The notes: a model not told the origin generated them from the sequence alone. A stretch of 64,000 bases of DNA from Escherichia coli (GCF_003019035.1 NZ_CP027447.1); one strand, 5' to 3'. Numbered from the stretch's first letter, positions 19,088 through 57,493 are shown. Program-made: numbers and translations.

Positions 19088-19572
19088 TTAATTACCTTCA
19101 CTCGCGCTTTTTCTCCCACCACCAGCGCGTTGTCCGGGACAGAGTCGAGCACCACGCTGCCCGCGCCCACGGTGACGTTGTTACCAAGCGTGATATCACC
19201 AAGAATAATGACGTTGGCACCGAGTTCGACGCCGTTGCCAATGTGTGGACATGCCATGTTATCGGCACCACGATTGCCGATAGTGACGCCGTGACGAATG
19301 GTGAAATCATCCCCCGCGACCACGTTTTTATTGATCACCACGGCGTAACCGTGATGGATAGTAAAGCGTCGGCCTATGGTCGCGGCGGCCTGGATTTCAT
19401 AACCGAAAAAGCATTCGGTGATAATGCGATACAGCACCAGCAGCGGGGCCGCCCACAGATTGTTGAGGACGTTCTTTTTGCGCCACACCGAACAAAAATG
19501 AGCGACGCGATAGGCAAGAACCATGCAGCACGGACGTAAACTCCAGCTGTTGGCGCGCAGATCTTCCAGCAT
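19084..19572 (-). CDS. wcaB: Colanic acid acetyltransferase WcaB (serine acetyltransferase-like)
   Basis: 162-aa hexapeptide-repeat ORF. Confidence 0.9.
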   Translation of the reverse strand: MLEDLRANSWSLRPCCMVLAYRVAHFCSVWRKKNVLNNLWAAPLLVLYRIITECFFGYEIQAAATIGRRFTIHHGYAVVINKNVVAGDDFTIRHGVTIGNRGADNMACPHIGNGVELGANVIILGDITLGNNVTVGAGSVVLDSVPDNALVVGEKARVKVIK

Positions 19573-53305: not shown

Positions 53306-53519
53306 ATCAAAACAACTCTTAGTTATTGATAATTAAGATTAACCTCCGCCATTAAAATAGTGGGCACTGACGAGCACTCGTTGTGCTTTCTTTGTTTACC
53401 ATCCCATACTTATCTTCCTGAACATGTTCATATGCCAAAATATCTTCTAATACTTTCGTGACGCTATCCGGTTTATGAAATACACTGATGTAAGATTTTT
53501 ACTTACAGGCGGGTGTAAA

Positions 53520-53771
53520 ATGGCCAGAACGATGACGGTTGATCTCGGCGATGAGTTGCGTGAATTTATCGAGTCCTTAATTGAATCCGGCGACTATCGC
53601 ACCCAAAGCGAAGTGATCCGTGAGTCGCTGCGCTTACTTCGAGAAAAGCAAGCAGAGTCTCGCCTGCAAGCGTTACGTGACATGCTCGCTGAAGGGTTGA
53701 GTAGTGGTGAAGCTCAGCCGTGGGAAAAGGACGCGTTTTTACGGAAGGTGAAAGCAGGGATAAGGAAATAA
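53520..53771 (+). CDS. parD: Type II antitoxin ParD (ribbon-helix-helix)
   Basis: 83-aa product MARTMTVDLGDELREFIESLIESGDYRTQSEVIRESLRLLREK… characteristic ParD N-terminus; stop overlaps downstream toxin start region. Confidence 0.8.
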   Translation: MARTMTVDLGDELREFIESLIESGDYRTQSEVIRESLRLLREKQAESRLQALRDMLAEGLSSGEAQPWEKDAFLRKVKAGIRK

Positions 53772-53772
53772 T

Positions 53773-54069
53773 GTGCGTACTATAAAACTCATGCCAAAAG
53801 CCAATGAGGATTTAGAAGGCATCTGGTATTACAGCTATCACCATTTCGGCGAACCACAAGCCGACAGATATGTGGAACATCTTTCAGACGTTCTCCAGAT
53901 TCTGAGTAACAATAATATAGGTACGCCCAGACCTGAATTAGGCGAAGGTATTTTTGTTCTTCCTTTTGAACGCCACGTAATTTATTTCCTGCAATCACCA
54001 GAGGAAATTATCGTCATTCGTATCCTTAACCAAAACCAGTACGCCTCCAGACATTTACACTGGAGCTAA
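53773..54069 (+). CDS. parE: Type II toxin ParE (RelE/ParE superfamily); GTG start
   Basis: 98-aa ORF …ANEDLEGIWYYSYHHFGEPQADRYVEHL…HVIYFLQSPEEIIVIRILNQNQ…; starts 2 nt after parD stop. Confidence 0.8.
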   Translation: MRTIKLMPKANEDLEGIWYYSYHHFGEPQADRYVEHLSDVLQILSNNNIGTPRPELGEGIFVLPFERHVIYFLQSPEEIIVIRILNQNQYASRHLHWS

Positions 54070-54171: not shown

Positions 54172-55533
54172 ATGTTTAAACCGGAACTCCTTTCCCCGGC
54201 GGGAACGCTGAAAAATATGCGTTACGCTTTCGCTTATGGCGCAGATGCTGTTTATGCGGGCCAGCCGCGTTACTCCCTGCGTGTGCGCAACAACGAATTC
54301 AACCACGAAAATCTCCAGCTCGGCATCAATGAAGCCCACGCGCTGGGGAAAAAGTTTTATGTCGTGGTCAACATTGCACCGCACAACGCCAAGCTGAAAA
54401 CCTTTATCCGTGACCTGAAACCGGTGGTGGAGATGGGGCCGGATGCGCTGATTATGTCCGATCCAGGGCTGATTATGCTGGTGCGCGAGCACTTCCCTGA
54501 AATGCCGATCCACCTCTCGGTGCAGGCTAACGCCGTGAACTGGGCGACGGTGAAATTCTGGCAGCAAATGGGACTGACCCGCGTGATCCTCTCTCGCGAG
54601 CTGTCGCTGGAAGAGATTGAAGAGATCCGTAATCAGGTGCCGGGTATGGAGATCGAGATCTTCGTTCACGGTGCGCTGTGCATGGCCTACTCCGGTCGCT
54701 GCCTGCTCTCTGGCTATATCAACAAGCGCGACCCGAACCAGGGCACCTGCACCAACGCCTGCCGCTGGGAGTACAACGTCCAGGAAGGGAAAGAAGATGA
54801 CGTTGGCAACATCGTGCACAAGTACGAGCCGATTCCGGTGCAAAATGTTGAGCCGACGCTGGGCATCGGCGCGCCAACCGACAAAGTGTTTATGATCGAA
54901 GAAGCTCAGCGTCCGGGCGAGTATATGACTGCGTTTGAAGATGAGCACGGCACTTACATCATGAACTCGAAAGATCTGCGCGCTATCGCCCACGTTGAAC
55001 GCCTGACCAAAATGGGCGTGCATTCGCTGAAAATCGAAGGTCGTACAAAATCTTTCTACTATTGCGCACGCACCGCGCAGGTTTACCGTAAAGCTATCGA
55101 TGACGCAGCTGCGGGAAAACCATTCGATACCAGCCTGCTGGAAACTCTGGAAGGTCTGGCGCATCGTGGCTATACCGAAGGTTTCCTGCGTCGTCATACT
55201 CACGACGATTATCAGAACTACGAATACGGTTATTCAGTTTCTGACCGCCAGCAGTTTGTTGGTGAGTTTACCGGTGAGCGCAAGGGCGACCTCGCGGCGG
55301 TAGCGGTGAAAAATAAATTCTCCGTTGGCGACAGCCTTGAGCTGATGACGCCGCAAGGGAACATTAACTTTACCCTTGAGCATATGGAAAACGCCAAAGG
55401 TGAAGCTATGCCGGTCGCACCAGGCGATGGTTATACTGTGTGGATCCCGGTGCCGCAGGATCTTGAGCTAAATTACGCGCTGCTGATGCGTAATTTCTCC
55501 GGGGAAACCACGCGTAACCCCCACGGTAAGTGA
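54172..55533 (+). CDS. yegQ: Peptidase-U32-family protein YegQ (TrhP, implicated in tRNA ho5U synthesis)
   Basis: 453-aa ORF MFKPELLSPAGTLKNMRYAFAYGADAVYAG…. Confidence 0.92.
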   Translation: MFKPELLSPAGTLKNMRYAFAYGADAVYAGQPRYSLRVRNNEFNHENLQLGINEAHALGKKFYVVVNIAPHNAKLKTFIRDLKPVVEMGPDALIMSDPGLIMLVREHFPEMPIHLSVQANAVNWATVKFWQQMGLTRVILSRELSLEEIEEIRNQVPGMEIEIFVHGALCMAYSGRCLLSGYINKRDPNQGTCTNACRWEYNVQEGKEDDVGNIVHKYEPIPVQNVEPTLGIGAPTDKVFMIEEAQRPGEYMTAFEDEHGTYIMNSKDLRAIAHVERLTKMGVHSLKIEGRTKSFYYCARTAQVYRKAIDDAAAGKPFDTSLLETLEGLAHRGYTEGFLRRHTHDDYQNYEYGYSVSDRQQFVGEFTGERKGDLAAVAVKNKFSVGDSLELMTPQGNINFTLEHMENAKGEAMPVAPGDGYTVWIPVPQDLELNYALLMRNFSGETTRNPHGK

Positions 55534-55861
55534 TTCATTTCGATTATTTTTCCCGGATGGAAAATTCTTAGAAACCGATCACATACAGCTGCATTTATTA
55601 AGGTTATCATCCGTTTCGCTGAAAAACATAACCCATAAAATGCTAGCTGTACCAGGAACCACCTCCTTAGCCTGTGTAATCTCCCTTACACGGGCTTATT
55701 TTTTATACATAAGCCGTATCCTGGTAACCGTCTTCCATTGACCACATCGATAGAATCTCCCCTCATAGCACGATGCCTTTCACTTATTGGCATCGTGCTC
55801 GCACAGGTTCCGGTTACGCACAGCCAGAACGCGCATGTTTGACGCTTACCAAAAAATATTC

Positions 55862-56179
55862 TCACTCTCCACATTTGAATGTCAGACGAGCGACGCCATG
55901 TAATCCTGCACCTTCTGTCTTCAGGTCAACTATCTGCATTTTTTTTCCCTGAGTAACACAGAAATGAACTGCATCATTTTTTACTATATTTTCTGCACCA
56001 GATATTCTACCCCTGGCTAAAGAAGCTTCGGCTTCGGTGTAGTATTGGTTATCGAGTTTACGCTGGATATTACTTTTATAGGCAAGACCGAATTTACCGA
56101 TACTTGTCTCATCATTATGCACAGCACAACCAGACATAAGAAAAACACTAATTAATGATATAGCAGCTATCTTTTTCAT
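55862..56179 (-). CDS. yegR: Lipoprotein YegR
   Basis: Start at MKKIAAISLISVFLMSGC (lipobox); ORF-track 20-codon extension rejected. Confidence 0.85.
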   Translation of the reverse strand: MKKIAAISLISVFLMSGCAVHNDETSIGKFGLAYKSNIQRKLDNQYYTEAEASLARGRISGAENIVKNDAVHFCVTQGKKMQIVDLKTEGAGLHGVARLTFKCGE

Positions 56180-56593
56180 CTTACCTTCCCCCATTAAATA
56201 CCAACGACACGCTCTGGTGTTTAAATATAATAATGGCATGATTATTATATTTGAATAGGATTATAATAAATGTTCTGTACAACATTTCCTACATAAGTAG
56301 GAATTACATACACGGATGCCCTTCCGGGTAACCCCATGGGGGGGTTAATATATTTTTAATAGTATATTGAAGATGCCACTGTTTAGTTGAATATTAGGTA
56401 TATGCTCTTTTTTGAAATTTATCGGTGGCTGCCGTTAGTATTCGCTGTCCCCATTGCAAGCTCCTGGTGGTAACCACTGAATCTTCCATACTTGAACTGA
56501 CTTTTTATCCTCCGACTTTCATCCTGTTCTGACTCTACCTTTTCTTTTCTGCTCTACACTATCTACAGACCAATCATAAAGGCACATACGATC

Positions 56594-57493
56594 ATGGCAG
56601 AATTTCCCGCCAGCTTACTGATTCTTAATGGCAAAAGTACTGACAATCTACCCCTGCGCGAAGCAATTATGCTGTTGCGTGAGGAAGGAATGACGATCCA
56701 TGTGCGGGTCACCTGGGAGAAAGGCGATGCCGCACGATATGTAGAGGAGGCCCGGAAGTTGGGCGTCGCAACGGTGATTGCCGGTGGTGGCGATGGCACC
56801 ATTAATGAAGTTTCTACGGCGTTGATTCAGTGTGAGGGGGATGACATACCCGCGCTGGGAATTTTGCCATTAGGAACCGCCAATGATTTTGCCACCAGTG
56901 TAGGGATTCCTGAGGCACTGGATAAGGCGCTGAAACTGGCAATTGCCGGTAACGCCATTGCGATAGATATAGCGCAGGTCAACAAACAAACCTGTTTTAT
57001 TAATATGGCGACAGGCGGATTTGGGACGCGTATTACCACAGAAACGCCGGAAAAATTAAAAGCCGCGCTGGGTGGCGTCTCTTACATCATTCATGGCTTA
57101 ATGCGCATGGATACTCTGCAACCGGACCGTTGTGAAATCCGCGGTGAAAACTTTCACTGGCAAGGTGACGCCCTGGTCATTGGTATTGGTAACGGGCGTC
57201 AGGCTGGTGGCGGTCAGCAATTGTGCCCGAACGCGTTAATTAACGATGGCTTGCTGCAACTGCGCATTTTTACCGGCGATGAAATTCTTCCGGCTCTCGT
57301 ATCAACCTTAAAATCTGACGAAGATAACCCGAATATTATCGAAGGCGCTTCGTCGTGGTTTGATATACAAGCCCCACACGAAATCACTTTTAATCTTGAT
57401 GGCGAACCGTTGAGTGGGCAAAACTTCCATATTGAAATACTTCCGGCGGCGTTGCGTTGTCGATTACCACCAGATTGTCCATTATTGCGTTAA
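56594..57493 (+). CDS. yegS: Lipid kinase YegS (DAGK-like catalytic domain)
   Basis: 299-aa [21 protein letters not shown]…[13 protein letters not shown]. Confidence 0.93.

Follow-up and report, generated by a model that had tools for sequence, protein, structure and literature searches.

The DNA analysed here is a 64-kb stretch of Escherichia coli, called the window below, and the region of interest in it is the gap between yegQ and yegR, which occupies 55534-55861 and measures 328 bp, in agreement with the roughly 330 bp given by the original prediction. The features of the gap and its surroundings are as follows.

54172-55533, plus strand: yegQ (trhP), tRNA U34 hydroxylase, an ORF of 453 aa with the RefSeq name of matching genes; left border of the gap.
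55568-55583, plus strand: CRP-type site of cyaR, TTAGAAACCGATCACA, conserved in 18 Enterobacterales.
55605-55610, plus strand: -10 box of cyaR, TATCAT, ending 7 nt before G55618.
55618-55704, plus strand: cyaR (ryeE) small RNA gene, from Rfam RF00112, fold and terminator.
55669-55696, plus strand: intrinsic terminator hairpin of cyaR with 11 pairs, then the T-run TATTTTTTAT, from terminator scan and fold.
55678-55705, plus strand: P2 attB core AATCTCCCTTACACGGGCTTATTTTTTA, unoccupied, 28/28 identical to AF063097 24355-24382.
55686-55874, minus strand: spurious 62-aa ORF, the only ORF of at least 60 aa in the gap.
55706-55764, plus strand: probable decayed P2-type P side of attP (scar) with the IHF region deleted, from alignment and profile.
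55706-56501, no strand: E. coli-specific block of 796 bp, bordered by the T-run of cyaR on the left and by the ancestral upstream region of yegS on the right.
55721-55750, plus strand: putative arm-type Int site region of the scar, with the repeat TGACCACA intact at 55739-55746.
55767-55799, no strand: inverted repeat AGCACGATGCC / GGCATCGTGCT, perfect over 11 bp, in the 3' region of yegR, sitting where P2 has the ogr terminator.
55862-56179, minus strand: yegR, a small lipoprotein-like orphan (PF27694), AT-rich, an ORF with the RefSeq name 'lipoprotein YegR'; right border of the gap.
56372-56456, plus strand: probable fragment with an IS1-family left inverted repeat and the first ~12 insA codons, from DNA alignment.
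56594-57493, plus strand: yegS (lipid kinase), from ORF and tblastn over at least 120 species; ancestral right neighbour of cyaR.

The yegR product has 105 aa and starts with MKKIAAIS, and the mechanical ORF extends to 56239. Of 5426 complete E. coli genomes, 5423 matched a 728-bp query centred on the gap, with strain SCU-301 as the best match (100%). On the other side of yegQ, the yegP-yegQ spacer was 906 bp long in the window and contained genes for a ParD antitoxin (Pfam E 7e-19) and a ParE toxin (E 2.4e-13) at 53475-54069; the same spacer was 147 bp long, with no parD/parE, in K-12 DH1 and in strain UID2309220007, and the pair is a strain-variable toxin-antitoxin insertion.

The gap carries the small RNA gene cyaR. 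The Rfam family CyaR_RyeE (RF00112) matched 55616-55701 on the plus strand with 100.7 bits (gathering score 47, E 1.4e-20), over model positions 1-85 of 85. The 5' end is taken to be G55618, in line with the K-12 annotation. Upstream of it, an alignment of 18 Enterobacterales showed TTAGAA-N4-GATCACA at 55568-55583 to be invariant or nearly so, and the centre of this CRP-type site (55575.5, about 42 bp upstream of G55618) would place it in a class II-like position. The -10 box was kept as TATCAT or TATTAT in the Enterobacteriaceae of the alignment and was looser in the more distant Enterobacterales. The terminator hairpin was present in both the MFE and the centroid folds, together with a small additional hairpin, and its stem showed compensatory substitutions between genera in the same alignment. 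The yegQ stop codon lies about 145 nt before the P2 core, on the same strand as cyaR, in the window and in nearly all of the at least 120 species scanned, and cyaR is also next to yegQ (STM2137) in Salmonella (PMC2515195). Activation by cAMP-CRP and association with Hfq have been reported for CyaR, and its targets include ompX, yqaE, nadE, luxS and yobF (PMC5861431; PMC2515195). The gene in the window would thus be expected to produce a CRP-activated, Hfq-dependent small RNA that represses ompX, nadE, luxS and other mRNAs. It resembles the known CyaR in its full-length match, its synteny after yegQ, its CRP-type site, its terminator and its U-tail, and differs from it in nothing notable, the stem having a G-U pair at the position that is A-U in ST131-type strains.

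The last 28 bp of cyaR, comprising the loop and 3' arm of the terminator plus the T-run, coincide with the attachment core of phage P2. The identical segment of the P2 genome (AF063097, 24355-24382) is the annotated attP, or Int 'attP core', and in P2 this core is flanked towards ogr by an IHF site and the P arm, and in the other direction by the Cox sites, the P' arm and int. Blastn against 50,697 phage records matched the core over 28/28 positions in P2 and five related Peduovirus genomes. In a search of the whole gap against these records (word 11, E<=10) only the core was matched, aside from two host-flank records, 'Phage TP' (AY639599) and ON470606. The first of these (AY639599.1) is a K-12-like piece of chromosome with yegQ (as 'putative protease'), cyaR, an ogr remnant and the start of yegR, and the second, of vB_EcoM-720R8 (ON470606.1), includes a host flank with the complete yegR; since both contain host DNA, their matches are false phage matches. 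The core occurs once in the 64-kb window, and neither a second copy nor P2-like genes were found between yegQ and yegS. Furthermore, the split matches of genomes with large inserts overlapped at query positions 345-372, which correspond to 55678-55705 of the window, so that the core is also the exact junction of P2-like prophages elsewhere. An exact, single-copy P2 core at the very point where lysogens have their junctions means that the window holds an unoccupied P2 attB, as the original prediction had thought possible when it proposed an alignment with P2 attachment sequences. It corresponds to the P2 attachment site known as locI; the P2 attachment site was reportedly mapped in a paper of 1992.

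The occupied form of the site is known from several strains. A 'cyaR RNA' insertion site has been described that holds Wphi2 (P2) in strain W, ogr-D' in K-12 and P2*B in strain B, and nothing in strain Crooks (PMC3032704), and ryeE had previously been recognised as a phage target among the documented sRNA targets (PMC3603311). The use of cyaR/ryeE by P2 is therefore already published, and most of the present finding is textbook knowledge. Compared with the P2 site and the K-12 'ogr-D'' element, the window has the same core, the same neighbours (yegQ and yegR) and the same junction as K-12 and the lysogens; compared with the P2 site of E. coli C, W, B and K-12, it is unoccupied, like strain Crooks. 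The alignment with K-12 (DH1) showed a 631-bp insert in the latter, which contains ogrK and a truncated 'phage late control D' pseudogene, starts directly after the core and is closed by the partial repeat TACACGGGCTTATTTTTT. This bears out the earlier statement of ogrK and yegZ (D') between yegQ and yegR of K-12, whose spacer is longer by those 631 bp, so the short spacer is not shared. The insert is absent from the window, by alignment with DH1 and by the lack of ogr or D similarity in the gap. A complete element was found in strain UID2309220007 (NZ_CM142668), where a 32.9-kb P2-like prophage with ogrK, D, tail, head, lysis, replication, cox, repressor and int genes lies between two cores (at 532 and ~33411 of the extracted locus) and an intact cyaR stands at its left junction. 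Viral contigs with the core gave 126 loci with 128 cores (120 loci from one scan, the others previously collected), the commonest classes being 70 junctions of P' side and E. coli flank, 41 of cyaR and P side, and 2 attP. In addition, a 9.7-kb contig deposited as 'MAG: Collinsella sp.', an actinobacterium (JAIJJM010000051.1), joins the 3' part of E. coli cyaR and a perfect P2 core to a P2-type P side; almost certainly it comes from the prophage junction of an E. coli and was mis-binned.

The empty state was the common one. With a 131-bp query, 4207 of the 5426 complete E. coli genomes had an unbroken junction, and at least 80% of the 728-bp query was covered in 4561 genomes when pieces up to ~860 bp apart were counted as joined; by subtraction, about 350 genomes have small inserts, the K-12 type among them, and about 860 have larger ones, such as 33-kb P2-like prophages. 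Unoccupied is thus the majority state in E. coli and K-12 is the unusual strain. The 51 nt made up of the cyaR 3' end and the core were identical in 4838 of 5423 records and differed by one base in 583. ST131-type strains have A for G at window position 55693, in the 3' arm of the terminator, so that A-U replaces the G-U pair and all pairs of the stem are Watson-Crick, at the price of one mismatch to the P2 core. A separate difference was seen in JJ1886 (ST131), where an AT-rich insertion of 171 bp follows the yegR stop codon at a distance of a few bases (at ~1025-1196 of the extracted locus); it also occurs in other genomes, as two-piece matches spanning 899 bp, and is absent from the window (~55846-55850).

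From what is known of P2 biology, P2 Int, a tyrosine recombinase, together with IHF would exchange strands inside the core, and as P2 brings its own copy of the cyaR 3' end, integration rebuilds an intact cyaR at the left junction, as is seen in lysogens. The arrangement is the same as in phage integration at the 3' ends of tRNA, tmRNA and sRNA genes, the core being here the 3' arm and tail of the terminator. As in other systems of 3'-end integration, the attL junction restores an intact gene and successive elements leave debris beside the target. It differs from the tRNA-type targets in that the terminator of an Hfq-binding sRNA takes the place of the tRNA acceptor or T-arm, sRNA targets being rarer (PMC3603311).

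Three other accounts of the gap were considered in the light of these data. The first, implicit in the original prediction, is that it is an ordinary intergenic spacer without a function, where K-12 merely happens to have phage debris; it draws on the fact that 55534-55861 contains no conserved protein-coding ORF. The earlier description of the gap as non-coding sequence missed the sRNA gene (Rfam, 100.7 bits). Set against a full-length and high-scoring CyaR match, a conserved promoter, a covarying terminator and an exact identity with the P2 attP core, the plain spacer is hardly credible, and it is already refuted by the Rfam match, the P2 core identity and the alignment of 18 Enterobacterales. 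It is just as hard to believe that the 62-aa ORF, which overlaps both the 3' end of yegR and the terminator of cyaR, encodes a genuine small protein. The ORF does start with ATG and reaches 62 aa. In 74 E. coli copies, however, the length of its product lay anywhere between 18 and 88 aa; ST131-type strains have the reading frame interrupted by a 171-bp indel, and in lysogens it continues into phage DNA. No Pfam match was obtained either, which agrees with the view in the original prediction that it is spurious. More worthy of attention, yet still rather improbable, is that an ancestor of this strain had a K-12-type remnant or a P2-like prophage that was lost through Int/Cox excision or recombination between core repeats. 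Remnants and prophages are flanked by direct core repeats of 18-28 bp that permit a clean loss, and the window has the same P2-perfect form of the core that 4838 of 5423 records show. Nothing speaks positively for such a loss, which would be clean and unmarked, and with the empty state in the majority an ancestral empty site is simpler; because precise excision leaves no trace, a site never occupied and one cleanly excised look alike. All these data indicate that the gap is almost certainly cyaR together with an empty P2 attB, and no observation speaks against either identification.

The sequence that follows the core appears to have a different history from its neighbours. The block at 55706-56501 contains the probable scar, the hairpin, the AT-rich yegR, an AT-rich spacer and the IS1-family fragment, and has a GC content of 0.36-0.39 against ~0.53 for its neighbours. 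It was 94% identical in K-12 by blastn, and had no blastn match in E. albertii or in two further Escherichia genomes, 'E. coli' E69 (CP089930) and Escherichia sp. E1V33. In these last two, the cyaR T-run is followed straight by yegS, whose product is 94% identical to that of the window; homology to them resumes at window position 56502, where only TTTTT of the core is left. A scan with the cyaR pattern, using one genome per species, yielded at least 120 loci, and in most genera among those listed yegS starts ~106-140 nt after the start of the core; no YegR was found by tblastn at cyaR in any of the listed loci from other species. These loci do not include E. fergusonii or a number of further Escherichia species, so the time of the insertion is only roughly bounded. 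The absence of the block from the sister lineages sampled, together with the absence of YegR at cyaR in at least 120 other species, suggests that the block is the fossil of an ancient insertion. E. albertii NBRC 107761 has a different insert of ~3.4 kb between cyaR and yegS, from the core to ~+3480, which lacks yegR and has at its start a decayed P2-type P side of its own (AATGAAATAATAGGGTTTATTTCTGATCGCGTCCAC); it would represent another fossil, of independent origin, at this site. Furthermore, bona fide P2-type P sides were present at cyaR in several Citrobacter, Trabulsiella and Buttiauxella, with cores that differ from P2 at 2-4 positions.

The first part of the block resembles P2 itself. 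The window flank after the core reads CTGGTNACCGTCTTCCATTGACCACATCGA, and in a three-way alignment it shared many matches with the phage-derived flank of the K-12 attL. When 55706-55861 was aligned locally with the P2 sequence that follows the core, CTGGTAACCGTCTTC-CATTGACCACATCGATAGAATCTCCCCTC was paired with CTGGTCA-CGTCCACACATTGACCACATCGACAAAAAAGCCCCTC at a score of 36; dinucleotide shuffles scored 15.6 ± 2.3 and none of 2000 reached 36. The P2 segment concerned is the annotated P-arm site of Int plus the start of the ogr terminator, and CTGGTCAC of P2 recurs unchanged in many E. coli strains. A global MAFFT alignment of the scar with the P side gave 34 of 58 identical positions (59%) and a 17-nt gap, which replaces the AAATAAAAGGATTTATT region, so that the IHF site between core and P arm is missing; at this position P2-family elements have the IHF-type AAATAAA[AT]GGATTTATT. 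The arm-type repeats of P2 are GTCCACA and TGACCACA in the P arm and GTGTCCACA, twice, in the P' arm. One of the two P-arm repeats is intact in the window, inside a 15-nt identity (CATTGACCACATCGA), and the other is decayed (CGTCTTCC against CGTCCACA). The similarity is below the reach of blastn against the phage records and was seen only by direct alignment. A profile built from 21 distinct P-side sequences, with the core left out, had its best match in the whole window on both strands (128 kb) at 55736-55762 (E 0.0066, 12.2 bits), 31 nt from the core and collinear with it. Another profile match, at 19234-19256, was a partial one of 12 nt that fell within an ORF of 162 aa and was put down to chance. 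On the minus strand, the 3' untranslated region of yegR (55700-55870) is unusually structured, with an MFE of -57.1 kcal/mol (z = -4.0 against shuffles), and the perfect 11-bp stem in the yegR 3' region has no T-run after it.

We consider it probable that 55706-55764 is the scar of an old P2-family insertion. Such a scar is old and common to essentially all E. coli, and is not a K-12-like remnant. The original prediction of no prophage remnant between yegQ and yegR therefore holds for K-12-type ogrK/D' and for recent prophages, and fails for the P2 core and for the ~59 bp read as a decayed P arm; technically, the phage-derived sequence that would have refuted the prediction is detectable inside 55534-55861, where 55706-55764 resembles the P2 P arm (score 36).

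The other end of the block has a trace of a different element. The segment 56372-56456 was 70.9% identical over 86 nt to an IS1-like element of pMRE600-1 (blastn E 8e-5), with an alignment score of 48 against 19.0 ± 2.2 for shuffles (z ~13). The peptide MAAVSIRCPHCK matched positions 1-12 of the Zn_ribbon_InsA family (PF03811) with E 0.0048 and 17.1 bits, which is below the cut-off of 26.1. A pattern for the canonical IS1 left end, with 3 mismatches allowed, had 0 matches in the window, and the fragment appears from its sequence to be a divergent member of the IS1 family, recognised through the plasmid match. It aligns with the IS1-like element from the first bases of the left end through the start of insA, and differs in that only ~85-130 bp are left, at 71% to the nearest element compared, with no transposase or right end. 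In the AT-rich spacer between yegR and this fragment, the terminator-like hairpin TAACCCCATGGGGGGGTTA followed by ATATATTTTT was noted at 56329-56347 on the plus strand, with no obvious gene upstream.

Regarding yegR, a large protein search found homologues almost only in E. coli and Shigella, and no match was obtained in the Pfam copy searched. Its origin as a phage gene was considered and set aside, as tblastn of the phage records gave no homologue except the deposited host flank. Distant homologues were found at unrelated loci. One of them, with 52% identity, is in Enterobacter sp. BIDMC 29 (KI973170.1, 6001-6318), where it adjoins an MFS transporter gene within a group of transposase genes (IS3, IS110 and Tn3 types) that also includes an omptin gene; a second one (45%) is at an unrelated chromosomal locus near mug and the formate dehydrogenase operon. 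Genes of the YegR family thus appear to move horizontally.

The P-arm likeness could have arisen in another way, either from E. coli flank DNA that P2-family phages once picked up through imprecise excision or by chance or convergence, for example on a host Int-binding site. The signal is indeed short and modest (profile E 0.0066), and a 12-nt partial match to the same profile also turned up by chance in a coding ORF at 19234-19256. We regard this explanation as unlikely on several grounds. The motif GTCCACA ... TGACCACATCGA, after AAATAAA[AT]GGATTTATT, is shared by the P2-family elements at Citrobacter cyaR, a close variant of it is present in Trabulsiella and the Buttiauxella locus was flagged too, and in P2 the motif is an annotated Int-binding site. 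In addition, the E. coli flank is missing in two sister Escherichia lineages, and yegS directly follows cyaR in most of the other genera sampled (at least 120 loci). Lastly, the match is collinear with the core and the best in the 128 kb searched, and no shuffle reaches the alignment score. A further alternative concerns only the order of events: the yegR block would have come first, and a P2-like prophage would later have been lost by a deletion that spared only its P side, which would leave the same picture.

Coming back to a P2-type scar heading the block, 55706-55764 would be the phage side of attP, with the IHF region lost and one arm-type Int repeat still intact, and the block 55706-56501 would be the remainder of an element that once inserted at this core. 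Later deletions, one of them ending in the IS1 copy, may have removed the rest of the element, including the second core copy. In this regard, a search of 55706-56600 on both strands for a second, degenerate core found nothing above 8-nt matches, and no integrase, phage gene or second core copy was found in the block. With what has survived, the block is best read as the residue of an old insertion at the core. Whether yegR arrived with the same element as the scar is close to evenly balanced, and we stay slightly on the doubtful side of it; its arrival with the element, or its entrapment behind it, is the weakest link in the argument. The composite picture of a cyaR locus, an unoccupied P2 attB and an older P2-type scar behind the core is very probably correct. 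On a longer view, we lean towards the idea that the 'bacterial' side of the P2 site is itself phage-derived, a fossil attL made of the core and a decayed P arm, present in essentially all E. coli and heading a block of ~800 bp that brought or trapped yegR and the IS1 end. It is a long shot that the surviving arm-type repeat still binds P2 Int and so contributes to the strong preference of P2 for this site over secondary sites. The fossil reading is a modest new detail and overturns nothing in current understanding.

These results have a direct consequence for annotation, since the gap should carry cyaR and an attB feature instead of being described as an 'empty spacer', and the 62-aa ORF should not be annotated as a gene. 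With its intact, P2-perfect core, the strain is a ready host for lysogeny by the P2 family at the site it prefers, and cyaR would stay undamaged by it. If the fossil reading is true, the locus is a small but tidy example of the way in which debris builds up at a hot integration site and is later taken for core genome, yegR being treated as an ordinary E. coli gene, and it would offer a testable idea on why P2 favours the cyaR site.
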